Shown: positions 28,072 to 63,146 of the stretch, piece by piece
Layout: each line of letters starts with the position of its first letter
How positions within the stretch are numbered: position 1 is the first letter of the stretch
IMG/VR virus record: IMGVR_UViG_2974541498_000001
Span: 64,001-128,000 of that record
Source: a virus
Lineage: Duplodnaviria; Caudoviricetes
DNA length: 64,000 nucleotides
Direction: 5' to 3' (one strand)
Made by a program: the position numbers and the translations under genes
The notes under the pieces: generated by a model
Databases searched by the model: none
What the model was told of the DNA's origin: nothing
Seen by the model: only the letters and a program-made list of their open reading frames with translations

Positions 28072-30720
28072 ATGAACTTTAAAAGACTCTTACATCCAAA
28101 CTTAAAAAAAGGATATGTTGAAGACTTCAATACCAGCTCGGCAAATTATGCTTTTTTCTCAGCAATTGAAGATATCCTAAGCTCTACTGAAAAAGATACG
28201 ATTGATAGTAAAGTAGAGAGTTATTTAAACAGTGCTGATGGAGAATTCCTCGATGAGTGGGGAAGCTGGTTTGGTGTAGCTAGAAAAGATAATCAAAGTG
28301 ATGACGATTATCGGAAATGGATAATTACGTATGCAACATTGAAGCGTGGCACAAAAAAAGCCATAATTGATGCCATTAAAATGTATCTGGATATGTCGGA
28401 TGCTACAATATCTGTATATGAACCCTATAAGAATGTATTTCAACTAGATAAATCAAAACTAGATGGACTAGATCATCTATCAGGAGACTATTATAGATGG
28501 GGAATTATTAACATATATGTAGATAGACCAGTACCAGAATCAATATACCAGATAATTAGAGACTTTAAACCAGCAGGAGTTAACTTTTTTATCACTGTAG
28601 ATACTTCAACTAATAAAAATAATAAAGCATTAGCTATAACTACTGGAATTAAGGAATTCAATTCCGTAGAAGAAGCTTATATTGGTTTCTCTAAAAGTCA
28701 AAGCTACTATTTGGATTTAGGTGGTAGAAATAATAAGCAGGAACTTAAAAATCCCTTTATTCTAGATAAATCAAAACTAGATAGTACGGATGTTTTAGCT
28801 GGGGGATATAATGATGATATTAATTATGATGATATTCCTTCAAATTATAATAAGGCATTCATTTATGGGGTTTCTTATATCGGATCTGATGATGTATTTT
28901 CAGGTAATGATTGGAATTATCAAACTAATTCCTATGGATACAATGATGATCTTTGGAATTCAGCTACAGTCTTTGATAAAAGTTATTTCACTTCGGATAA
29001 ATACTCAGATTTAGACGGGTACACTAGAGCAAATTATTCTAGTCAAATAATAAAATTAGACTACTCTGGAATGCTATCACAAAATATTAATGGGAATAAT
29101 AGAGTATACGGTAGTGTACTATATGGGGATAATAACATAAGCACTATTAGTTATGATCCTAATAACTTAGTATCCCCAGATAAAGCCGTACCAGTAATTA
29201 CAAAGACGGATAAATATTACACCTATTCATTAGAGTATAATTCTATAGATAGCTCATATAATTCTATCCCGGATAAACTAAATATATTAATATCAGCAAG
29301 TAGTTTAAATTCTAACTCCAGCTACCAAGTAGATCTACTAGATAAATATGGTGTTCCTTTAAAAACTCAAATAATTAATATATCTGGTAATTCTAGCATA
29401 AATAAAATAGTTTTTGATAATGAAATAAAAACAGAACCAGCCAATCCTTTCACCATCAGTAAATCTAAAGTAAGTGAAGGAGTTATTGGAGTAACACCAA
29501 ATTTAATGAAAGCTGTTAAGCTGGTAAGAATTTATTGTGGTATACGAGGAGATAGCCTGAATAATAACATATCTTTTGGTGTACCATCTGCTACTATTTT
29601 TGATACGGATACTTGGCTACCTTTTAGTGGGGATAAGAATCAATTCCCAGTAATATTGGATGAGAACCTACAGAATCTGTCTAAGAAAGATGATAACCAA
29701 TTAACAATAAATCCTGTTGCTAATTATAATGTTTCCACCAATTCTTATACGAACGTTTCTCCAGCAAGTTTAAAAATAACTTTTAACCTAATAAACGATC
29801 TATATTCTAAGTATCTAAACTTCTGGGATTCTCAAGGAGTAATAGATAAAAAGGATATAATTAGTAAACTATTGCCAGCAATTAAAGGGATCAGTTTGGC
29901 ATTTGCTGGGGACTTAACTCATGCAAATATTAGTTATTCAAAAGGAGGAAACCTAACCCCTATTTCAGATAATTCAATATCTAATGATATAATTACTATA
30001 GATCCGAATTATATTGATGATGATGGAAATATCGTAATTGTAATATCAGGTAAAACAAATAGTGACAAAATAAATGTAGATTTTATTAGATTTTATTATT
30101 CTCTAAATGATAAAGCAATTCCAACATTTTCTCCAAACAAAGAAATGGGTAAGCCTTATCTTAAGTTCTTTGGTAAAGGAATAGACTATTCTTTCTATGA
30201 CGCACTTACTATGGGAAGCAATAATATTTATGTAAATTCTGATATTAAAGATAATAGTATTATTATTGCTATAAATGCAAGAAAACAATTAGAATACAGA
30301 TATGGTATAGATGAAAAGGATATAACTTCGTTTTTAAACAATAGTAATTCAAGTATACTATTAGAAATGTTAGCTGAAAACGCTGGAAATGCTAATTTAT
30401 CAATTGCTAATCTAAATACCGGAAATCCAGATTCTATTGGGAATGTTTCTTTTTCAAACGACTTTAGCTACGTTAATATTTCTAATAACCTAAATGATTT
30501 TGAAAACTATGTATCCAATTCTGGATTCATTTTCCTTTCAATAAATCCAGATACTGATTTAGGAGAAATACGAATTAAAAACTTGTATATTTTTGGAAAG
30601 TATCCAACAGCTCATTTAAGTACCCGTATAAAGACTGGTATCAGTATGGATATTACCGTTTTTGATTCCTATAGTAGTGCCGTTGATAAGGCAGTTGTAG
30701 ACAAAAGCAAGGTAAAATAA
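28072..30720 (+). CDS. baseplate wedge/tail protein
   Basis: A.GEFLDEWG.WFGV.RK....D..YR..II and FKPAGV motifs. Confidence 0.8.
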   Translation: MNFKRLLHPNLKKGYVEDFNTSSANYAFFSAIEDILSSTEKDTIDSKVESYLNSADGEFLDEWGSWFGVARKDNQSDDDYRKWIITYATLKRGTKKAIIDAIKMYLDMSDATISVYEPYKNVFQLDKSKLDGLDHLSGDYYRWGIINIYVDRPVPESIYQIIRDFKPAGVNFFITVDTSTNKNNKALAITTGIKEFNSVEEAYIGFSKSQSYYLDLGGRNNKQELKNPFILDKSKLDSTDVLAGGYNDDINYDDIPSNYNKAFIYGVSYIGSDDVFSGNDWNYQTNSYGYNDDLWNSATVFDKSYFTSDKYSDLDGYTRANYSSQIIKLDYSGMLSQNINGNNRVYGSVLYGDNNISTISYDPNNLVSPDKAVPVITKTDKYYTYSLEYNSIDSSYNSIPDKLNILISASSLNSNSSYQVDLLDKYGVPLKTQIINISGNSSINKIVFDNEIKTEPANPFTISKSKVSEGVIGVTPNLMKAVKLVRIYCGIRGDSLNNNISFGVPSATIFDTDTWLPFSGDKNQFPVILDENLQNLSKKDDNQLTINPVANYNVSTNSYTNVSPASLKITFNLINDLYSKYLNFWDSQGVIDKKDIISKLLPAIKGISLAFAGDLTHANISYSKGGNLTPISDNSISNDIITIDPNYIDDDGNIVIVISGKTNSDKINVDFIRFYYSLNDKAIPTFSPNKEMGKPYLKFFGKGIDYSFYDALTMGSNNIYVNSDIKDNSIIIAINARKQLEYRYGIDEKDITSFLNNSNSSILLEMLAENAGNANLSIANLNTGNPDSIGNVSFSNDFSYVNISNNLNDFENYVSNSGFIFLSINPDTDLGEIRIKNLYIFGKYPTAHLSTRIKTGISMDITVFDSYSSAVDKAVVDKSKVK

Positions 30721-30756: not shown

Positions 30757-31371
30757 GTGGCCTACGAAACCCCTACACCAGCAATTAATAGTAATGCGTT
30801 AGTTTTTCATGCTATTAATTACTTTAATAATCTAAATAACTGCTATATAGTAATTGGTAAAACAAGCTCTTGGCCGGTTGATGCTCAGCCTCCTGTTCCT
30901 GTTGATGGAGATAATGTCACGGAAGTTGCAGGATACTTTAAGCCAACTTGTTATCTTTGCTATAAAACAACCGCAGATAAAAAAGATGATTCAACATTAT
31001 CTTATGGAAATGACTTTTATCAGCCGGTTTCCTTAGCAGATGCTTATAGTAAAAAGGCTTCTTATGTATATTATACCGTAACAATAAAACCAGATGATAT
31101 TTCAAATGTTAATACATTCAGACAAGTAGGTCTTAACTTTGGGGTAACTCTTAAATCTGGGGTATCTGGGGTAATTTTGACTCCAAGCAATGTAGATAAT
31201 TCTGGATATACTCATTTTATTCTTAACAGTCAACCATTCATTGTTACTAATAATAGAAGCATTAAAATTAATATGCTCATTTCAGAAGAAAAGGATATTA
31301 GTGGATCTAATGTAGATACTGACGTTACCTCAGAAATAACAACAGTTTTGCCTACTACTGTAAATCAATAA
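30757..31371 (+). CDS. baseplate structural protein
   Basis: IGKTSSW.....PP.P and FRQVG motifs; C-terminal TTVLPTTV extension. Confidence 0.78.
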   Translation: MAYETPTPAINSNALVFHAINYFNNLNNCYIVIGKTSSWPVDAQPPVPVDGDNVTEVAGYFKPTCYLCYKTTADKKDDSTLSYGNDFYQPVSLADAYSKKASYVYYTVTIKPDDISNVNTFRQVGLNFGVTLKSGVSGVILTPSNVDNSGYTHFILNSQPFIVTNNRSIKINMLISEEKDISGSNVDTDVTSEITTVLPTTVNQ

Positions 31372-31397: not shown

Positions 31398-33251
31398 ATG
31401 ATGGCAAAATATACGCCCGGAGATTTAGAGATATCTCCTTATTACGATAGATTTGATGACACTTCAAATATAACTTTTGTTGCTTTCGTAGCTAATAATA
31501 TCCTTCAAGGATCAGAAATGAATGAGTTACAATCCATCATTAGTTATTATATGCAATCATTAGGTAATTCCATCATGAGCGATGGTGATAAACAAGCAGG
31601 AATGGCCTATGTTCAAGATGGAACAAATATAACAATACAATCCGGGGAAGTTTATCTTGGAGGTAAAGTAAGACATTTCTTAGAGCAGACAGTTAAAATT
31701 ACCGGTGTTGGTATTGAAAATATTGGAATAAAATTAAATACGGAGATTATTACTCCCCAAGAAGACTCTTCTTTGTTAAACCCAGCCATTGGCACTCCTG
31801 GGTATCAATCACAAGGAGCTAATAGAATAAGAGAAACTGTTGAATTGGTAGCTAATGATTCTAGTGCCGTATCTATTTATACTTTCAAAGATGGTAAAAT
31901 ATATTATGTTCCAGAATCTACCCAACTAGCTAAAGTAAGCAACATGATGGCTAAACAAACATCTGAAATAGATGGAAACTTTAGAATTGGGTCATCTGGA
32001 TTCCAAATGTCTACGGTAGAAGACCCTAATGATAACAAAAAAGCCATTCTAAATATATCATCAGGGGTAGCCTATATCTTAGGTAAAAGAGTAAATAAAG
32101 CAGTTGCTACTCAACTGTCTGTTGACCGGGCTATTAATACTAGTACAATCACTAATGAACAAAATACATTTGCGACTGGAACGTTAAAATATCCTCTGGG
32201 GAATTTCCCAGTTCAAAGTATATCATCAGTTACGGCAAATGTTCAGAAAACAATTGTTGTATCAAGAGGAACTTCTGATGTTGATTCTTTAGCAGATAAA
32301 AATGTTATTTCTATTTCTAAAGTATACACAGAGGGTAGTAGTAGTGTTACCTATACAGAAAATACTGATTACAAGTTAATAAACCATCAAACAATTCAAT
32401 GGATTTCTACAGGAAGCTCACCTGCTAGTGGTACTAGTTATAAAGTCACATATGTATATAATAAGAGTCTTGACTCAACTAATGATTATGCGGTAACTAC
32501 CGATGATAATTCACTAATAACATCTATTGATTTCACTGGAAAAGGAATTGTGGGATCAGGAGATGCTACTGGTGGTGTTCTATTCAACGGTAGTATTATT
32601 TCTACAACTTATGACTATTATCTTGCTCGAATAGATATTCTAACATTAAATGATAAAGGCGACTTTATTATCCACGTTGGGCAACCAAATGATGCGGATT
32701 CTGTAGTTCCTCCATTAATTAATGACGGTAATGTCCTAGAAATAGGAAGTATTGCATGGCTACCAAATTCATATAAATCTACTTGTAAGACATATGCTAC
32801 TTCTAACTTAACTTTTAGAGATCTAACAATGCTACGGGATAGAGTTGATATTATAGAATTTAATGAAGCGCTTAATTCCCTAGATGATGTTGCTACCGCT
32901 AATTATGATCCTACTCAATTAAGAGGGGTGTTCTCTGATGGGTTCATTTCATTAGATAAAGCAGATTATACAAATGATGACTATTCCGTTATGATGAATT
33001 TTGAAGACGGAACTATTACCCTTCAATATTCTAGTAAAACAGAATTAGTTCCCGATATATTATCTGGGGAAAGCAATATTATCCTATCTGATAGTGGTAA
33101 GTTTGCGACTGCGGCATATACAGAAGTCCCAGCTATATCCCAGCCAACAGCTACCAGCGCCATATTAATTAACGAATACTCATACTTCGGTAAAGAAGGG
33201 GTATTAACATTAAAGCCTTCATCAGATAATTGGGTAACTAATGCAAGCTAA
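31398..33251 (+). CDS. adsorption/tail fibre-network protein (DUF4815/VrlC-like), N-terminal half
   Basis: SPYYDRFD, LQ.SE.NELQS, G.AYI.G, YLARID, LRGVFSDGF motifs. Confidence 0.85.
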   Translation: MMAKYTPGDLEISPYYDRFDDTSNITFVAFVANNILQGSEMNELQSIISYYMQSLGNSIMSDGDKQAGMAYVQDGTNITIQSGEVYLGGKVRHFLEQTVKITGVGIENIGIKLNTEIITPQEDSSLLNPAIGTPGYQSQGANRIRETVELVANDSSAVSIYTFKDGKIYYVPESTQLAKVSNMMAKQTSEIDGNFRIGSSGFQMSTVEDPNDNKKAILNISSGVAYILGKRVNKAVATQLSVDRAINTSTITNEQNTFATGTLKYPLGNFPVQSISSVTANVQKTIVVSRGTSDVDSLADKNVISISKVYTEGSSSVTYTENTDYKLINHQTIQWISTGSSPASGTSYKVTYVYNKSLDSTNDYAVTTDDNSLITSIDFTGKGIVGSGDATGGVLFNGSIISTTYDYYLARIDILTLNDKGDFIIHVGQPNDADSVVPPLINDGNVLEIGSIAWLPNSYKSTCKTYATSNLTFRDLTMLRDRVDIIEFNEALNSLDDVATANYDPTQLRGVFSDGFISLDKADYTNDDYSVMMNFEDGTITLQYSSKTELVPDILSGESNIILSDSGKFATAAYTEVPAISQPTATSAILINEYSYFGKEGVLTLKPSSDNWVTNAS

Positions 33252-33262
33252 GGAGGATATTA

Positions 33263-34930
33263 ATGGCTTTTGATTTTTATAATGATATGATGGCTAAACA
33301 GGCCGATATCACAATTAATACAGATAGATGGTGGAAACATGGTGGCACTGATAACTATGTTTTAAACAATACTACTTGGGATGCTTCTAGCTCTAAATAC
33401 ATTGGAAATATGGGCAGGCAAAAAGGTAAGCATCAATTAAATGGTACGTATACGACATCGACAACAGTATCTGTGGCACACAACTATAGTTATACTACTA
33501 TGGATCAGTTTATGCGAGTTAGAGATGTTGAATTTACTGCAACAGGATTAACTCCCTTAGCTACAGGATTTTATTTAACATTTAACGGGGTTAGAGTAAC
33601 TATTACTCCATCTTCTGGATATAGCACAGACACTTCTGGTAAAGGAACCGTTACTACTGATTCTAATGGTGCTTTTTCTGGGAAATTCTCTGTTCCATCT
33701 AATGTTCCTGTAGGCACCGTAGAAACTATTTTTACAAATGATAAAGATAGCTGTGTTACAACTTATACAGCATCAGGTATGACACAACATACTGGGGTTT
33801 ATTATACTGATGAAACATATTTCAACACACAATATGTTACTGCATACGTATCAGACCCAGTAGCAGAGACATTTCAATTACCACAGGACAGTTACGTAAC
33901 TAGTTTTGATATCCCATTTGGATCAGTAGACTTAACAGAACCAGTAAAGTTTCAACTTAGAGAAGTAAGCAATACTGGATATCCAACAAGTACAGTTTAT
34001 GCTAATGTCACAGTTCCTTCGGAAAATATTAAAACATCACAAGATGGATCAGTACTGACGAATATAAAGTTGCCAACACCTTTCTTAGCTAATGCAAATG
34101 TTCAATATGCCTTTGTTCTAGCTTCTCAGTCTGATAATTATACAGTATTTAGAGCTAAATTGGGTGAACTTTCTTTAGCAGATAAGAAAACTAAATGTAA
34201 TTCTCAACCATATGGTGATGGAGTAATGTTTACCTCTTCTAATTCTACCACATGGACCGCCGACCATACCGCCGATTTGAAGTTTAATATTAACATTGCC
34301 AAGTTTAACCCAACAGCAGAAATTGTTTTTGATGTGCTGAAAAATATTAAAATGGATACATTCGTAGCCTTTTCAAATTTCTTAACACCAAACAACACTA
34401 ACTGTACTTGGTACTATAGAATGATTGGTCAGGATGATTCTGGGGATGCAGATATTACTAAAAAGAATTGGCTACCATTAGCGCCTTTTGAAACAACTGA
34501 AGCAGATACTATTATTACTCAGTTCCAATTAAAGGCGGATTTCACGGCAACTGATTTCAGTTCTCCTGTAATTAATATGGATAGTCTAAGTTTAGGACAA
34601 TTCATTACTGCACTTAAAGGTAACTATATTGGAAGGACAATAGATGCTACCCAAGCACCCTTTAATACTATTCACACAGTATTTAGTGCACAACTTCCTA
34701 ATAATGCTGTAGTTACACCTTATTATAGTCTAGATGGTGGTAACACGTGGAAGCAATATACACAGGCTCCAACAACAACCACTCAGACTAATGGGTATGT
34801 TCAGTATGCTTATACAGAGAAGTTAAGTAATGATGCTACTAGCTTTAAGATTAAATTAACTTTATCTACACAAAGTAGTTTCTTAAAACCTTACGTAACA
34901 AACTTAATGAATACCTTTAACAAGGAGTAA
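33263..34930 (+). CDS. adsorption/tail fibre-network protein (DUF4815/VrlC-like), C-terminal half
   Basis: RWW.HG, FMR.R.V.F, DP.A.TF, G.MF.SSN..TWT....DLKF motifs; AAGGAGG RBS. Confidence 0.85.
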   Translation: MAFDFYNDMMAKQADITINTDRWWKHGGTDNYVLNNTTWDASSSKYIGNMGRQKGKHQLNGTYTTSTTVSVAHNYSYTTMDQFMRVRDVEFTATGLTPLATGFYLTFNGVRVTITPSSGYSTDTSGKGTVTTDSNGAFSGKFSVPSNVPVGTVETIFTNDKDSCVTTYTASGMTQHTGVYYTDETYFNTQYVTAYVSDPVAETFQLPQDSYVTSFDIPFGSVDLTEPVKFQLREVSNTGYPTSTVYANVTVPSENIKTSQDGSVLTNIKLPTPFLANANVQYAFVLASQSDNYTVFRAKLGELSLADKKTKCNSQPYGDGVMFTSSNSTTWTADHTADLKFNINIAKFNPTAEIVFDVLKNIKMDTFVAFSNFLTPNNTNCTWYYRMIGQDDSGDADITKKNWLPLAPFETTEADTIITQFQLKADFTATDFSSPVINMDSLSLGQFITALKGNYIGRTIDATQAPFNTIHTVFSAQLPNNAVVTPYYSLDGGNTWKQYTQAPTTTTQTNGYVQYAYTEKLSNDATSFKIKLTLSTQSSFLKPYVTNLMNTFNKE

Positions 34931-43306: not shown

Positions 43307-44347
43307 GTGATAGCTATTAGTAACGAAATTATGCTTTTTACAGACTTTCATGCATACTCTGGATTTACAGAATTCTCTGACTCCGATAAAGAATATAAGA
43401 ATTCTAGATTTAGAAATCAATGTGAAGTATTAGATGGAATCCTTAATACTGCTGAAAAAGAAAATATTCCTGTTATTTTTGGAGGAGATTTATTTCATGT
43501 TCGTCAAAAGGTAGATATATTTGATTTTAATAATATTTTTAGGATATTTGCTAATCATCCTAAAGTTGAAGTTTATTTACTAAGAGGAAATCATGATTCC
43601 ATTAATAATCTTATGGGTTCTCCATCTTCTATAGACTCTTTTAATTTCTTACCTAATGTAAAAGTTATCACTAATCCAGAAAAGATTAATATTAATCATG
43701 TAAATGTGTTCTTCATGCCTTATGGAGAAGATAAAGATTTTATTAGGAATAAGTTAAAAGAATTTTCTGATACTGCTAATAGGCAAGGTAATCAGTCATT
43801 ATTAGTAGGTCACTTAGGAATTAACGGTGCAGAATTAATGGGAACTAAAGCCGAAGGCGAGTTTAACGCAGGAGACTTTTATCCAGATATATTTGACTTT
43901 ATCTATATGGGACATTATCATAAGAGACAAAGGATTAATGGATTAGATACATTTATCTATGGTGGAAGCACTATTCAAAATACCTTTAGTGATGCGGGTC
44001 AAGATAAAGGATACGATATTTTATCCTTTGATGGTAATACAGTATATGATAAATTTATTACAAGTTCTTCTCCAAAGTTTTTTACCTTTAGTAATTATGA
44101 TGATACAGTAAAGGAAGTAATTGATAGAGGAAACTTTGTTAGAATTAATGCCCCCGAAGAAGAGGTTAAAAAAATAGCGCTATCGGAAGATGATGAAAGT
44201 AAAGTAAGAATTTCTCCAATAAAAAATTTTGATGTAAATTCTAGATTAGATATTTCCCCGGACGATTCAGTTACTGAGGTAGTTGCTAAGTTTCTTAAAG
44301 ATAAAGGAATAGACGCGTTAGAAGAAGCGAAAGAGGTTTTGCCATAA
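43307..44347 (+). CDS. sbcD: Mre11/SbcD-like nuclease
   Basis: DFH, GGDLF, GNHD, GH, GHYH metallophosphoesterase motifs. Confidence 0.92.
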   Translation: MIAISNEIMLFTDFHAYSGFTEFSDSDKEYKNSRFRNQCEVLDGILNTAEKENIPVIFGGDLFHVRQKVDIFDFNNIFRIFANHPKVEVYLLRGNHDSINNLMGSPSSIDSFNFLPNVKVITNPEKININHVNVFFMPYGEDKDFIRNKLKEFSDTANRQGNQSLLVGHLGINGAELMGTKAEGEFNAGDFYPDIFDFIYMGHYHKRQRINGLDTFIYGGSTIQNTFSDAGQDKGYDILSFDGNTVYDKFITSSSPKFFTFSNYDDTVKEVIDRGNFVRINAPEEEVKKIALSEDDESKVRISPIKNFDVNSRLDISPDDSVTEVVAKFLKDKGIDALEEAKEVLP

Positions 44348-44862
44348 TGAACATTGATAATACAGTAACATATGATTTTGATAATTCAATTGTAGCCATG
44401 AATAAGATTTTAGCTAATCTGCATGTTTTGTGGATTAAAACGCATCAAGCACATTGGTATTTAATTAGTGGATCTGAGGGAATGACCGATTTTCTTATCT
44501 TGCATGATTGGTTAGATAAGCCATTAGATTTCTTACTAGATATGATTGATGATGTAGCAGAAAGAATTGTAATGATTAATGGAAGACCAGTTTCTACTAC
44601 ATCAGATATTTCGTTATTATCCAGTATTAGTGAAGAGAAAATTGATCTATTAGAATATAGCTCGGATTCCCTTTTAAACAGAACTGTTAATGACTTTAGA
44701 TTATTACGAAACGAAATAGCTAATTCCATTAAAGTTCTCGATGACGATGGGGATGTATCCGATAGCAATAAGCTACAAGATGATTTAAGCCAAATCAATA
44801 AGTATATTTGGTTTATGCAAGCTACCCTAGGAAGAACAACCTTAGATAGTAACCTACAATAA
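44347..44862 (+). CDS. dps: Dps/ferritin-like DNA protection protein
   Basis: K.HQAHW, LH..LD, D.VAERI...G.P, K.IWF. Confidence 0.9.
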   Translation: MNIDNTVTYDFDNSIVAMNKILANLHVLWIKTHQAHWYLISGSEGMTDFLILHDWLDKPLDFLLDMIDDVAERIVMINGRPVSTTSDISLLSSISEEKIDLLEYSSDSLLNRTVNDFRLLRNEIANSIKVLDDDGDVSDSNKLQDDLSQINKYIWFMQATLGRTTLDSNLQ

Positions 44863-58323: not shown

Positions 58324-58382
58324 AAGGGGGAGACAATTACGTCTCCTTTTTGCTTTACTGATTATATCGGGTGTGGTATAAT
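58324..58382 (+). promoter_or_regulatory. terminator followed by sigma-A-type promoter for recA
   Basis: GGGGAGAC/GTCTCCTTTT hairpin; TTTACT-17nt-TATAAT with TG. Confidence 0.75.
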
Positions 58383-58422
58383 TAAATAGGATAAAAATAA
58401 GTAAAAATAAAAGGATGGTAGT

Positions 58423-59709
58423 ATGGCAAAAAGTTCAGAAGAAATTAAAGTAGCTAAAGATTTAGGGTTTTCTTTAGTATCTGATAGTAACTATGCACAC
58501 GTTGACGACTTCATACCAACATTTTTACCACAAATTGATAAGATTATGGGTGGAGGAATTCCTTTACAGCGTATCTCAGAAGTATATTCTCCAGAAGGAG
58601 TAGGAAAGTCTACTTTTATGATTGAATTAACTAAGGCTTGCTCTTTGCTTGGAGTTAAAACATTCTATATTGATGGTGAAGGAACTGCTGATAGAGTTCG
58701 ATTTGAAGAGCTTGGTGTAGATCCATCAAATACTTTTGTTGCTTCTCCCAACGAAGGAGAACAAATGACGATTGAATTCGCCGCACAACGTCTAGAAAAA
58801 GTTATTGATAGCTTTACTGGTAGTAAGGAACCTCTTGTAATTATTATGGATTCTATTGGAGGAATTCCCGCTAAAGGTGAATTAGATTTAGATGCTGACG
58901 AGGAAGGCCAACGGGGAATGAAAGCAAAAGCAGTTACCCGAATGGTTACTAAATTAAATGCTAAAGTAAAAGATGCAAATGTAGCAGTTATATTTATTAA
59001 TCAGGTTAGAGATAATCAAAATAAGAAAGGAAAATTTGATGTTGATACTATCCGACCGGGTGGACGTGCGTTATCCTTTGCCGACAGTCTACGAATAGAA
59101 TTAAGAGCAGGATCTAAATACTGGGCAGGAACTGGTACTGATAGAGAATACGAAGGGCATATTCTTAGAGTTGTTATTGATAAGTCTAAGGTTAATCGGC
59201 CCCATCAAAAGAGGGAGACTTCTATATTTGCGGGTGCTCCTAGAAATACTACAACAATTACTAATGAAAAATATCAAGAAATGGACCCTAGTTTTGTTCC
59301 CGAATTAGAAAGTAATCCTAAAGACCCTATTCCATTTGTTCTAGATGGTATTGATTATGAGTATAACTTATTTCAAGAAGGATTTGCTCAAGATATTCTA
59401 AGCAAGGTTCATCGAGGATATGTTACTATGATTGATCCAAATACTGGAGAGGAACTATATAAGGAACGAGAAAATGATTTCCTGTTTTTACTAAAAAAGA
59501 ATTATAAAGGAATTCGTAAACAATTGTTTGAATTTGTTCTATTAGCAAACTTTCCAGAAAACTTTCCACCATTAGATAATAAGAATGTTAATGTAACCGC
59601 TTGGCCGGATATGAAAGATATTCAAAAAATCTATAAGCAAGTTCATAAGGATAAGCTATTAAGGGAAAAAGAAGCTAAGGAGGCTAAGTCTGATGCCTCT
59701 AGCAAATAA
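58423..59709 (+). CDS. recA: RecA/UvsX-like recombinase
   Basis: GGGIP..R.SEVY...GVGKST, IDGEG, DSIG, FINQVR, PGGRAL. Confidence 0.93.
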   Translation: MAKSSEEIKVAKDLGFSLVSDSNYAHVDDFIPTFLPQIDKIMGGGIPLQRISEVYSPEGVGKSTFMIELTKACSLLGVKTFYIDGEGTADRVRFEELGVDPSNTFVASPNEGEQMTIEFAAQRLEKVIDSFTGSKEPLVIIMDSIGGIPAKGELDLDADEEGQRGMKAKAVTRMVTKLNAKVKDANVAVIFINQVRDNQNKKGKFDVDTIRPGGRALSFADSLRIELRAGSKYWAGTGTDREYEGHILRVVIDKSKVNRPHQKRETSIFAGAPRNTTTITNEKYQEMDPSFVPELESNPKDPIPFVLDGIDYEYNLFQEGFAQDILSKVHRGYVTMIDPNTGEELYKERENDFLFLLKKNYKGIRKQLFEFVLLANFPENFPPLDNKNVNVTAWPDMKDIQKIYKQVHKDKLLREKEAKEAKSDASSK

Positions 59710-59962
59710 AGTGGAACCTTTTCAACAATATATTGATAAGTTAAATAAATATAAAGAGTCACAAAAAGAAGTATTAGTCGAAAATAGAGATCAGAAATAT
59801 ACACATTCTGATGTTATTAGGATTACCTATGTTGGCAATAGATTTGCTTTAGGTGAAACGGTTGATTATGGAATTCCCTATACACTTAACTACGCAGATA
59901 TGTATGCTAATAAGGGAAACACACTAAAAGTTAGATATAGAGACGAGGTTTTCGATGAATAA
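59693..59962 (+). CDS. hypothetical protein
   Basis: RFALG...PYT.NYAD motif; conserved between recA and sigma factor. Confidence 0.75.
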   Translation: MPLANKVEPFQQYIDKLNKYKESQKEVLVENRDQKYTHSDVIRITYVGNRFALGETVDYGIPYTLNYADMYANKGNTLKVRYRDEVFDE

Positions 59963-60848
59963 TTATTTACCAAGAGATTCTGAAAACTTACTAAAGAAAT
60001 ATAAACCATTAATTGATTCCACTTATGCTAGATATAAATATTTATTTACAAATACTATTGGATCGGAATCTTATATGCAGGGGGCTGAAGGCTCTCAAAA
60101 CAGAGAAATTCCTAATAAGTATGCCCAAGAAGATTTATATAGTTATATTTCAGAGCAATTTATTAAACTTATTAAGGAGTATGACCCTAATGGGGGTGTT
60201 GACTTACCTGGGTATTTAGCTAGTAAATTGCCTAGAAGAGTATTAGGATCTTATATTCATGGTAGAAGTAGAGATAGGCAACGAGAGAGTGTTTCCTATG
60301 AAAGCAATGGAATAGAAACTGCTATGGCTACTACTCCTTCGGTTGATAATAGTAGTGTTGTTCAAATTGTTCAATTAGTTGAAGGCGATCTTGAAACTCC
60401 TATGGATAAATATATTTTTAATCTATTAACGAGTAAGAATGAAGATTTAACTAAGACGGAAATGTATCATAGAGTTCTATCAGCATTCCCTGGTATAAAG
60501 AAATCGGAGTATACTGAGCGTCTTGACTATATTAAAGGTAGAGTTTCAGAAGAGATTTATGATAATCATTTGCGTTTATTTGGTAGTTATTCTAATAATG
60601 CCTATGCTAATAGTACGGGAACTTTGAAAAGAACCGACAGGGTCACACACAAGAAAGACAACCTAGATTATTTGCCAACGGCATCTGTTACTTCTATTAC
60701 TAAAGTATCTTTAAATGATGCTGTATTTACTAAGGATGTAGATTATTCATATGAGGGCAAAGGAATTATTAAATGGATCTCTTCAAATAGACCAAAGGTT
60801 GGAGAAAAATATGTTGTAGATTATATGTATAGATATTCTAGTGAATAG
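59955..60848 (+). CDS. phage RNA polymerase sigma factor with extra C-terminal beta-domain
   Basis: L..KY.PLI, EDL.SYI.EQFIKL.KEYDP...VD.PGY...KL..R region-2 motif; synteny. Confidence 0.85.
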   Translation: MNNYLPRDSENLLKKYKPLIDSTYARYKYLFTNTIGSESYMQGAEGSQNREIPNKYAQEDLYSYISEQFIKLIKEYDPNGGVDLPGYLASKLPRRVLGSYIHGRSRDRQRESVSYESNGIETAMATTPSVDNSSVVQIVQLVEGDLETPMDKYIFNLLTSKNEDLTKTEMYHRVLSAFPGIKKSEYTERLDYIKGRVSEEIYDNHLRLFGSYSNNAYANSTGTLKRTDRVTHKKDNLDYLPTASVTSITKVSLNDAVFTKDVDYSYEGKGIIKWISSNRPKVGEKYVVDYMYRYSSE

Positions 60849-60850
60849 AG

Positions 60851-61477
60851 ATGTTTATTTTGAGAAAGTCTAATGAAGCAGTTAAAGAAGATTTATCACC
60901 ATTAATTGAGGAGGCCATTATTGAGGTGGAAAAAGAAGAGTTAAAGGGTACTCAGACGGAAAATATTCCAGATAAGGTAACGATTAAAGTAGGAAATACA
61001 GAAACTACGGTAGATACTGATTTACCTAGTAAGTATAAGGCGGCAATTCCCTATATCGTTATTTTGATTTCTTGGGTAATTACTTTTGTTACTACTAAGT
61101 TTGGTTGGAAATTTCCGGGAACAAGTGAAGATATCACTACTTGGGTTACTTTATTAGTTTCCTTTGCATTAAGTATCTACGGAACTTGGCGGGATAATCC
61201 AATTACTAAGAAGGGCCAGTTCTTATCTATAATTGGTAAAGAACTAGAAGGATTATTGGGATCTATTGAGGGGCACACTAAGCCTACGACAGTATCCCCT
61301 AAGACTGCTGAAGAAACTACAGTGGAACCAACAACTGTTGAAGAAACTACAGTGGAACCAACAACTGTTGAAGAAACTACAGTAGCTCCTACGACTGTTG
61401 AAGAAACTACAGTAGCCCCCACGACAGTAGAACCAACAACCGTTGATGAAACTACAGTAAATGTTAAACAGGCATAA
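60851..61477 (+). CDS. holin-like membrane protein with T/E/P-rich repeat tail
   Basis: two TM segments, YGTWRDNPITKKG motif; EETTVEPTTV repeats. Confidence 0.75.
   Translation: MFILRKSNEAVKEDLSPLIEEAIIEVEKEELKGTQTENIPDKVTIKVGNTETTVDTDLPSKYKAAIPYIVILISWVITFVTTKFGWKFPGTSEDITTWVTLLVSFALSIYGTWRDNPITKKGQFLSIIGKELEGLLGSIEGHTKPTTVSPKTAEETTVEPTTVEETTVEPTTVEETTVAPTTVEETTVAPTTVEPTTVDETTVNVKQA
61310..61460 (+). repeat. 30-bp tandem repeats encoding EETTV(E/A)PTTV
   Basis: GAAGAAACTACAGT.G..CC.AC.ACTGTT units. Confidence 0.9.
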
Positions 61478-61506
61478 TAGAATAAGCAACATATATTATT
61501 AAAAAT

Positions 61507-61533
61507 TAGGACACTACGATTAGTGTCCTTTTT
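61507..61533 (+). terminator. rho-independent terminator
   Basis: AGGACACTA-cgat-TAGTGTCCTTTTT. Confidence 0.85.
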
Positions 61534-61595: not shown

Positions 61596-62153
61596 ATGGC
61601 AAGTATTAATGTAAATGATTATTTAACTGGGGCAAAGACAGTCCCCTTAGATGGAAAGTATTTAATAGCAAAAACGAGAGATGATGGATTTACTGGAACT
61701 TGGGCAGGAAATTATATTTATAAAGTCCAAAAGTCGGGCAATAACTATTATGTAATTGAACAAAAGTGGGACTTTGATAAGCTAGCATGGGTAGACAAGG
61801 ATGCTCCTATTATTAGATACGATGGGACTACTCTATTTTTTGCTACTAATACGCATATCGATCCATATAATGGGAGTGTCGGCAACTATAAAACAGTTAC
61901 TCCAGATAAGGTAGAACATAATATTGTATTAGCTTTCTTGGCTTTCATTGCTGATGAGTTTGCTAATGCTAACTATGATGTCTTCCTAACTCATGATAAC
62001 TTTATTGATGACGAACTTGTTTCTAAAGTAAATCCTAGTTCGGGTACTACAGTTAAGCCAACAACGGTAGCTCCAACTACAGTTAAACCAACTACAGTGG
62101 CACCCACAACGGTAGCCCCAACTACAGTTAAACCAACTACAGTTAAACCATAA
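61596..62153 (+). CDS. putative virion decoration protein with C-terminal TTV(K/A)P repeats
   Basis: late-type motif CTAAATTATA upstream; position of herellevirus tail/head decoration genes; 7 x TTVxP. Confidence 0.7.
   Translation: MASINVNDYLTGAKTVPLDGKYLIAKTRDDGFTGTWAGNYIYKVQKSGNNYYVIEQKWDFDKLAWVDKDAPIIRYDGTTLFFATNTHIDPYNGSVGNYKTVTPDKVEHNIVLAFLAFIADEFANANYDVFLTHDNFIDDELVSKVNPSSGTTVKPTTVAPTTVKPTTVAPTTVAPTTVKPTTVKP
62046..62150 (+). repeat. 15-bp tandem repeat x7 encoding TTV(K/A)P
   Basis: AC.AC.GT.(AAR/GC.)CC. units. Confidence 0.9.
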
Positions 62154-62168
62154 TAATAGGGGGCTAAT

Positions 62169-63146
62169 ATGGAAAAGAAGGTTAACTATATTTTCTGTGA
62201 CCCCCAAGAATATCGGTTTTATTGGCAGGAACTTAATTATGTTAGGAATCTTATAGATATTGGTGTTTCTACAGATAACATCTATATACTAAATATAAAA
62301 AATAATGAAGATTATGCTCAAAACATTGTTAATCATTTTCCGGGGGTTCACTTATTTGAATTTGAGGATAAGCGAGATCGTGCAGGGAAGCAGTATGCGG
62401 CAACGCTAAAGCCTTGGCTGATGTGGCAATTCTTTGAGTTCTTCCCCGATAAAAAGGATGATGTATTTTTCTATACAGATTCTGACATTATTCTAAGCAA
62501 AAAAATAGAAGTTCCTGATGATTTAGATATCCACCACTGGTATGGATCAGATTGTAATTCATATTTAGGGATTGAATATATAAATAGCAAGAATTACCAA
62601 GACTCTAATTTGCTGTCTGAGATGACTAGCAGTATCGGTTTAGATGAATCGTGGGTTATTAGTCACGATGATGCTTCTATTGGGGCACAATACCTTATGA
62701 CAGGGTTATCTGCTACGTACTGGAAGGATGTATATGATTCTTCCATAGCATTGAAAAAATACCTAGATAGCATTGAACCTAGATATTTAAAAAAGTATAA
62801 AAAGTATAATCTAGACATTGATAATCCAATACAAAAATGGTGTGCAGAAATGTGGGCTACTTTATGGGTTATGGGAAAGCATGGCATTACCCCGAAAGTG
62901 TCAGATAATCTTAAATTTTGCTGGATTGACTGGAAACTAAGTGATTGGACCTCAGGAAAGTATTCTATTATGCATGATGCTGGAGTTACTTCTAGTGATA
63001 ATGGTATATTTTATAAGTATGACTATGCAAATAAGGATATATTTAAGGATATGCCTAACTTGCTAAATAGATTAGATAAGGGAAAATGTGGTTATGCTTA
63101 TGCTTTAGAATTGAATAAGACAGGAAAAAGAATTAAGGCTATATAA
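62169..63146 (+). CDS. GT-A fold glycosyltransferase, candidate protein O-glycosyltransferase
   Basis: KPWL..QF, FYTDSDII (DxD), GAQY, W.AEMWA and late H motifs. Confidence 0.7.
   Translation: MEKKVNYIFCDPQEYRFYWQELNYVRNLIDIGVSTDNIYILNIKNNEDYAQNIVNHFPGVHLFEFEDKRDRAGKQYAATLKPWLMWQFFEFFPDKKDDVFFYTDSDIILSKKIEVPDDLDIHHWYGSDCNSYLGIEYINSKNYQDSNLLSEMTSSIGLDESWVISHDDASIGAQYLMTGLSATYWKDVYDSSIALKKYLDSIEPRYLKKYKKYNLDIDNPIQKWCAEMWATLWVMGKHGITPKVSDNLKFCWIDWKLSDWTSGKYSIMHDAGVTSSDNGIFYKYDYANKDIFKDMPNLLNRLDKGKCGYAYALELNKTGKRIKAI

Follow-up and report, generated by a model that had tools for sequence, protein, structure and literature searches.

A gp34-type late sigma factor with a C-terminal beta module homologous to a baseplate protein sub-domain in the Tybeckvirus group of phages

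Why would a phage sigma factor end in a domain that resembles part of a baseplate protein? The question is raised by an open reading frame (ORF) of 297 amino acids in the 64,000-nucleotide stretch of phage DNA analysed here (the window: positions 64,001 to 128,000 of the Caudoviricetes record IMGVR_UViG_2974541498_000001), which a preliminary description made from the sequence had presented as a sigma factor fused to a domain paralogous to part of the baseplate DUF4815 protein of the same genome. This work shows that the fusion is a genuine, lineage-restricted domain accretion, in frame at the 3' end of the sigma gene. The core is a homologue of gp34, the late sigma factor of phage SPO1, and the added part a beta module of a kind found in several virion proteins. 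The coordinates of the features discussed below are given in Table 1.

The sigma factor and its in-frame extension

The gene was rightly described as a sigma factor with an extra in-frame C-terminal domain: a single frame runs from end to end, and residues 3–205 match phrog_1025 ('RNA polymerase sigma factor') with an E value of 4e-33. No internal start and no slippery site were seen in the junction region (60541–60660), residues 206–290 contain no methionine, and no plausible alternative start is present at the beginning of the module. The fused ORF recurs in Levilactobacillus phage ENFP1 (Herelleviridae, Tybeckvirus; L001:3001-3894; 297 amino acids, 93% amino acid identity), in the sister phage 521B (A0A4Y5FEN8; 295 amino acids, 92%, labelled RNA polymerase sigma factor) and in a metagenomic cluster of 50 member sequences (P0015; 299 amino acids), and a fragment of a fused sigma is found in P0001. 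The initial doubt that the frame might reflect chance read-through or an assembly artefact is removed by this recurrence of a 295–299-amino-acid ORF in ENFP1, in 521B and in metagenome contigs. The probability that read-through, an assembly error or the false joining of two adjacent genes created the fusion is practically negligible, as the frame is uninterrupted in at least four independent sources (the window, ENFP1, 521B and P0015), selection is visible at the codon level, and the module start lacks a methionine or any other plausible start. We found no support for such an origin; the only shortened gene call (146 amino acids) comes from L005, a contig from a JGI metagenome with the P0001 allele and a chimeric 5' end. 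The first 139 nucleotides of this contig (L005:1-139) are GC-rich, unrelated to the phage and contain many stop codons in the sigma frame; L005 is probably an assembly chimera, which accounts for the shortened call.

The extension is maintained, as had been proposed. In the comparison with ENFP1, dN/dS (the ratio of non-synonymous to synonymous substitution rates) is 0.041 for residues 1–205 and 0.076 for residues 206–297 (dS 0.76); the module compared with the L005 allele gives 0.19 (dS 0.86), and the ENFP1 and L005 modules compared with each other give 0.10 (dS 1.5). Judged from these values, which lie between 0.08 and 0.19, the module is under purifying selection. The window and L005 alleles are 96–100% identical at the nucleotide level upstream of a step that falls at the start of the module, and 58–91% identical from there into the downstream gene, with dS between the two alleles being 0.11 in the sigma-4 part versus 0.86 in the module. 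This boundary is likely to be a recombination breakpoint, which would place the module within a more variable downstream block. The module has the same GC content as the phage (0.325 and 0.33), hence the insert is neither recent nor unassimilated.

By its homologies, the fused protein is a member of the gp34-type family of phage late sigma factors, within the sigma-70 family. A profile made from 39 family members matches SPO1 at gene 34 and nowhere else in its genome (E 2.5e-19), and in BLASTP the sigma core aligns with SPO1 gp34 with an E value of 1e-9 and 32% identity over sigma-2. Homology to gp34 is used here as the anchor because the curated sigma-70 models recognize the protein only below threshold: Pfam Sigma70_r2 gives E 0.23 and 11.7 bits, below the cutoff of 24, and TIGR02937 gives E 0.044 and 13.4 bits, far below the extracytoplasmic function (ECF) cutoff of 42.9. 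The same two models give sub-threshold hits in four and seven, respectively, of the 39 relatives. A sequence search of the PDB, with either the single protein or the 39-member profile, returned nothing significant for the sigma part. In the AlphaFold2 model, residues 2–108 superimpose on sigma-2 of SigE, FliA, AlgU and SigW at about 3 Å over about 80 residues, with Z scores of 6.5–7.8, which for helical folds is under the decisive level of the tool. The sigma-4-like part is modelled as three helices (residues 149–159, 167–177 and 183–209) with a predicted local distance difference test score (pLDDT) of 58–78 in ten-residue blocks, and a comparison of the whole chain with sigma-28 covers residues 6–208 with a high root mean square deviation (rmsd), the orientation of the domains being different. 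SPO1 gp34 is the late sigma factor employed in SPO1 transcription assays (PMC13401047). The two proteins have a homologous sigma core and in both genomes the sigma start is overlapped by a small ORF directly upstream, but gp34 is only 197 amino acids long and ends after sigma-4, without a linker and without a beta module.

Only members of the Tybeckvirus group have the fusion, namely this genome, 521B, ENFP1 and the metagenomic alleles. The closest unfused relatives, P0016 and P0017, are 50% identical and consist of the sigma part only (215 and 208 amino acids), ending opposite residues 207–213 of the protein described here. Their neighbours are unchanged, with the same order of a recA-like gene, a small ORF, sigma and a gene for a transmembrane (TM) protein (L002-L004 and L006). 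In the three loci with P0017 (L002-L004) the sigma stop codon abuts the next gene, and in the P0016 locus (L006) the two genes overlap. This distribution implies that the sigma gene was extended by the module at its 3' end in the Tybeckvirus lineage of Lactobacillus brevis myophages. The 46 more distant sigma homologues all measure 192–228 amino acids, and among 680 phage records matches extend past about residue 258 only in ENFP1.

The module, its homologues and its predicted fold

The preliminary description had aligned the sigma tail by eye with part of the DUF4815 protein, which is the N-terminal half of the baseplate tripod protein. Essentially the same coordinates were recovered by BLASTP, which aligns residues 209–295 of the fused ORF with residues 267–357 of the DUF4815 protein (about 60579–60839 versus 32196–32468 on the window) with 27% identity and an E value of 1e-6. 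Positions 272–346 of the 570 in the Pfam DUF4815 profile match residues 221–293 (E 2.8e-7); the score of 29.7 bits is just under the cutoff of 30, as expected because one sub-domain is compared with a long profile. The tail also matches phrog_877 (E 3.8e-8). As only a single sub-domain of the DUF4815 profile is covered, the fused protein is not a DUF4815 protein; what its tail corresponds to is a beta sub-domain of roughly 70 amino acids, formed by residues 266–360 in the tripod of Staphylococcus phage 812. A hidden Markov model (HMM) was built from 10 module copies of other proteins, with the sigma and the tripod of this genome left out. It gives 66 bits (E 4e-20) for the sigma C-terminus and 64 bits for the tripod, the third-best of the 382 stop-to-stop ORFs of the window scoring only 3 bits. 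As the sigma tail had been the query by which the 10 copies first came up, it is the equal score of the tripod that serves as the informative control. In a profile search of the whole 136,608-bp genome, exactly two copies of the module were found, the sigma tail and the tripod copy.

Far from being peculiar to the baseplate protein, the shared unit is, to judge by its occurrences, a promiscuous and widespread mobile module. With the 92-amino-acid tail as query, 1.8 billion representative proteins yielded 14 hits. As scored with an HMM of the true copies, phage tail sheath proteins have four tandem copies of the module (P0003, P0005, P0006 and P0007), DUF4815 proteins have one to four (P0004, P0009, P0011 and P0012) and a phage protein of 374 amino acids has a single one (P0008). 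Two proteins of cellular type also carry it: a Kelch-repeat protein has two copies (P0010, 866 amino acids, L020:3001-5601; up to 38 bits), and in a flagellar cap protein, FliD, copies are inserted (P0014, 894 amino acids; up to 31.6 bits). The shared motif is roughly VTRG..D.L....V..I.KV..G...YTK..DY......I.WL....P..G..Y.V.Y.Y, and the four columns that are invariant over nine aligned copies (D, V, D and W) are all kept in the sigma module. The tail sheath copies belong to the same module family, with the shared motif and HMM scores of up to 105 bits per copy, but they decorate the surface of a structural protein in tandem, group in a clade of their own and have an acidic isoelectric point (pI). 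One candidate among the hits was rejected: P0002, a type IX secretion system protein of 2093 amino acids with 13–20 weak repeats (E 3.5e-16), contains Ig/PKD-like repeats that score 0–10 bits each and disappear with the HMM of true copies, and is a false positive. Searches for further carriers gave little: when 50,697 phage records were searched with the module by tblastn, the only matches were ENFP1 and, marginally, VrlC of an Acidovorax phage; the leads from the ESM Atlas were low-scoring (0.83 or below) and all virion-like; a search for related loci with the tripod protein as query returned near-identical contigs only. A word-based search for longer module-bearing proteins brought up sheath and DUF4815 proteins and no other fusion to a regulator, which is weak evidence.

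Whether the sigma module is paralogous to the tripod copy, as first proposed, is a different matter. Homology to this part of the baseplate protein stands; copying from the gene of the same genome is, given the tree and the scores, no more than a possibility. The maximum-likelihood tree of 14 module copies, with support values of 44/63, leaves the donor open and separates only the sheath-type clade; the sigma module falls outside this clade and has the WIS[ST] signature of the tripod-type copies, versus WL in the sheath type. In phmmer searches with the sigma tail, the tripod of this genome scores 18 bits, the lowest of the family members compared, versus 37 for P0008, 35 for P0009 and 30 for P0011, although these three had been selected as the best out of 1.8 billion proteins. 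A tripod-type origin of the sigma module is plausible from its signature, which does not amount to a duplication within the genome.

The predicted structure agrees with an independently folding unit. AlphaFold2 was given an alignment of fused sigmas, of their close unfused relatives and of 13 copies of the module taken from other proteins. In the resulting monomer model the sigma core is helical, with a pLDDT of 70–80 in most ten-residue blocks and below 50 in some stretches; the linker region (residues 205–221) is below 50, and the module is a confident all-beta domain (pLDDT 73–95). The best fold match of the module is to residues 266–360 of chain 9eui_Q of phage 812 (Foldseek probability 1.00, 2.3 Å); the VIA comparison of the same pair gives Z 11.6 and an rmsd of 2.5 Å over 85 residues with 24% identity, and a profile match to these tripod residues has an E value of 1.7e-6. 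Weaker fold matches (Z 6–9.6) are with neck and tail-tube-type proteins of T5, DT57C and other phages, which we read as a resemblance at the level of the predicted fold only. The 1152-amino-acid DUF4815 protein of the 9EUF and 9EUI entries is most likely the 812 'tripod' gp119 (PMC13433997), an assignment made from gene order and domain layout. The 812 domain and the sigma module thus share a fold and a detectable sequence homology, but the former is an internal domain of a large trimeric virion protein, whereas the latter stands alone at the C-terminus of a transcription factor of the cytoplasm.

Table 1. Features of the window, with positions counted from its first nucleotide
Feature	Coordinates	Strand	Basis
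Whole fused ORF: late sigma, linker and beta module, 297 amino acids	59955..60848	+	Single open frame
Sigma core, residues 1–213 (sigma-2 about 54–110; sigma-4-like helices 149–209)	59955..60593	+	phrog_1025; homologue of SPO1 gp34
Asn/Ser-rich linker, residues 214–221	60594..60617	+	Low pLDDT; absent from the 50%-identical P0016 and P0017
Seven-stranded beta module, residues 221–295	60615..60839	+	Homologous to the mobile sub-domain of DUF4815
Mosaic boundary between the window and L005 alleles (likely breakpoint)	60600..60627		Step in nucleotide identity
Sole other module copy in the genome, residues 267–357 of the tripod N-terminal half	32196..32468	+	BLASTP, HMM and profile search
Tripod N-terminal half, DUF4815, 617 amino acids	31398..33251	+	Pfam E 1.9e-141; 812 chain 9euf_0 residues 7-606, E 2e-122
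Tripod C-terminal half, separate 555-amino-acid ORF	33263..34930	+	812 residues 612-1149, E 1.3e-96
89-amino-acid ORF, in the position of SPO1 gene 33	59693..59962	+	phrog_1089 E 3.7e-14
Candidate transcription unit: recA-like gene, 89-amino-acid ORF, sigma, TM/holin-like gene	58354..61529	+	Consensus scans only

Neighbouring genes, baseplate genes and virion content

The sigma gene is found some 27 kb downstream of the tripod block, in a replication and recombination gene block, between a recA-like gene and a gene for a TM/holin-like protein. Consensus matches point to a promoter-like site at 58354–58382 and to a terminator-like hairpin at 61508–61529, and the genes from the recA-like to the TM/holin-like one form a probable single transcription unit. 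The 89-amino-acid ORF between recA-like and sigma overlaps the end of the former by 17 nucleotides and the start of the latter by 8, and is kept as an ORF of 91–92 amino acids in the relatives whose sigma has no module. In SPO1, gene 33 is immediately upstream of gene 34; no alignment and no detectable similarity was found between the product of the 89-amino-acid ORF and SPO1 gp33. Downstream, the TM/holin-like protein (60851–61477) and an Ig-domain protein (61596–62153) both have Thr-rich repeats of the TTVxP type at their end, and the gene for the latter is adjoined by one for a protein of 325 amino acids (62169–63146). A ferritin/Dps-like gene (44347–44862; Pfam Ferritin E 1.5e-15) lies among the replication genes.

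The tripod protein is one chain of 1152 amino acids in Staphylococcus phage 812 and is split here into two ORFs that are 12 nucleotides apart. Ahead of them are an ORF of 204 amino acids (30757–31371), which is the BW3TFN arm-segment protein (Pfam E 1e-41), and one of 882 amino acids (28072–30720), which is similar to 812 TmpF/ORF63 over the N-terminal 300 residues of the latter (E 5e-44) and, as it precedes the genes for arm segment and tripod, probably encodes the arm scaffold. The window and phage 812 have this order of scaffold, segment and tripod in common.

The content of the virion is known for 521B, in which ESI-MS/MS (electrospray ionization with tandem mass spectrometry) of CsCl-purified particles gave 26 proteins, the ORFs detected being 80, 81, 86, 88, 106, 121-147, 156 and 185 (PMC6563214 Table 4). 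Both tripod halves are detected separately (ORF146 and ORF147), and ORF156, the counterpart of the ferritin/Dps-like protein, is present in the purified virions with 48% coverage. By our own gene count on the 97%-identical 521B genome, anchored on ORF146, ORF147 and ORF156, the sigma factor is about ORF173; it is not among these virion proteins, although a low-copy protein could escape ESI-MS/MS.

Possible roles of the module

What, then, could the module do on a late sigma factor? That a complete sigma factor of the gp34 type acquired, within one phage lineage, a folded module of a kind otherwise found mainly in virion proteins is a structural and evolutionary statement that by itself we take as close to certain. 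Joined to it, the functional reading that we favour, with a probability of about one half, is that the module acts as a tethered accessory binding domain that alters where, when or with whom the late sigma factor acts. A sigma factor complete with sigma-2 and sigma-4 would be followed by a short linker and by one independently folding beta module of about 70 amino acids. In a holoenzyme, a position that follows sigma-4 is near the upstream promoter DNA; the module would thus be expected to hang just past sigma-4, beside this DNA and the flap of RNA polymerase, and a partner bound to it may recruit, sequester or stabilise the late sigma.

There are precedents for a sigma factor with an added C-terminal function. 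The T4 late sigma factor gp55 is tethered by its C-terminus to the sliding clamp gp45, which couples late transcription to another process; the tether is a short peptide motif, not a folded domain, and the sequences are unrelated to the fused sigma. Folded regulatory domains fused to the C-terminus are known from cellular ECF sigma factors, such as ECF41 (PMC3426412) and ECF42, ECF56 and others (reviewed in PMC8999054). Like the protein described here, these have sigma-2 and sigma-4 followed by an extra folded domain in one polypeptide, but their extensions are SnoaL-like, TPR or zinc-finger domains that dock on the core, whereas the phage protein has a virion-protein beta module for which no confident docking is predicted, and scores below the TIGR02937 cutoff. 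Because the fold of the extension differs and the score is under the family cutoff, it is not an ECF41/42-type sigma. The ECF proteins nevertheless offer the nearest precedent, by analogy, for the way in which an extension of this sort could act. In the literature, we found no report of a phage late sigma factor with a captured virion-protein module, and the DUF4815 papers found do not deal with sigma factors; the fused proteins themselves are already public, as 'RNA polymerase sigma factor' or 'hypothetical protein'.

Several observations weigh against a role as a binding domain: the model has a predicted template modelling score of 0.41 and does not dock the module confidently on the sigma core; the rate of evolution is higher in the module than in the core (78–86% versus 96–99% amino acid identity); outside sigma it was found only in extracellular or virion proteins, where it is possibly mere decoration; and gp34-type function is possible without it, as close relatives and all other Herelleviridae do without. 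An alternative is a passenger or stabiliser, that is, a promiscuous virion module caught by illegitimate recombination which is tolerated, or at most benefits the folding or the half-life of the protein, and which neither has a specific partner nor regulates. The mobility of the module across many unrelated architectures, often as tandem surface decoration, the restriction of the fusion to one small genus with 50%-identical relatives lacking it, its faster evolution and its flexible linker without predicted contact to the core all speak for this alternative, which we nevertheless hold unlikely, because the ratios of 0.08–0.19 at dS values of up to 1.5 hold for three alleles, no copy has a stop codon or a frameshift, and compact phage genomes rarely retain 250 useless in-frame bases.

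More specific roles can also be considered. Since the only other copy of the module in the genome sits in the tripod protein, and the sigma factor is of the late type that transcribes structural genes, the module might bind what the tripod domain binds in the baseplate, and unassembled baseplate subunits might titrate or release the sigma factor, an assembly checkpoint much like that of FlgM and sigma-28 in flagella. The tripod-type WIS[ST] signature of the sigma module, which lies outside the sheath clade, is in line with such a feedback, as are the protein–protein contacts that the 812 tripod domains make with RBP2, with the arm scaffold and with the tripods next to them (PMC13433997). However, the sigma module is only 27–29% identical to the tripod copy of its own genome, which does not imply a shared binding surface, and related phages with the same baseplate genes have a sigma factor without a module, so that we find a feedback of this kind quite doubtful. 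The fuller version, in which the module is a mimic of the tripod domain and a baseplate component holds or releases the sigma factor to tune late transcription to assembly, a counterpart of FlgM and sigma-28 made by domain capture, would be attractive but is a long shot. Alternatively, the module might touch upstream DNA or the polymerase and in this way strengthen a weak late sigma factor. Its place after sigma-4, near upstream DNA in the general architecture of the holoenzyme, would suit this, and the sigma-borne copies are basic (pI 7.8–9.2), while nine of the 11 virion copies compared are acidic (pI 4.1–5.5). In addition, the phage sigmas of SPO1 reportedly bind promoters more weakly than sigma-A (PMC13401047). 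The tripod copy of the same genome (pI 8.2) and P0008 (pI 8.8) are likewise basic, however, and no DNA-binding relative is present among the matches of the fold search, which makes a contact near the promoter rather improbable. Finally, it had been suggested that the module tethers the sigma factor to the virion, docking it in the baseplate or tail for delivery with the DNA. The module family does occur otherwise mainly in virion proteins, but the sigma factor is missing from the 521B virion list, and a gp34-type sigma drives late, not early, genes, the SPO1 early genes being served by the host sigma-A (PMC13401047). This proposal thus fared badly; we do not think that the module is a virion-packaging signal and consider delivery with the DNA very improbable.

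Returning to the module as an accessory binding domain, its significance would depend on the partner. As the fusion is restricted to one small phage genus, little practical impact is to be expected. A sub-domain of DUF4815 of roughly 70 amino acids is now defined as a mobile module, present in tail sheaths, tripods, FliD and Kelch proteins, and the natural occurrence of fused and unfused variants at 50% identity provides a clean comparative system. If the module binds polymerase or DNA, it would be an example of a weak phage sigma factor reinforced by domain capture; if its partner is a structural protein, late transcription and virion assembly would be physically and directly connected in the Herelleviridae.

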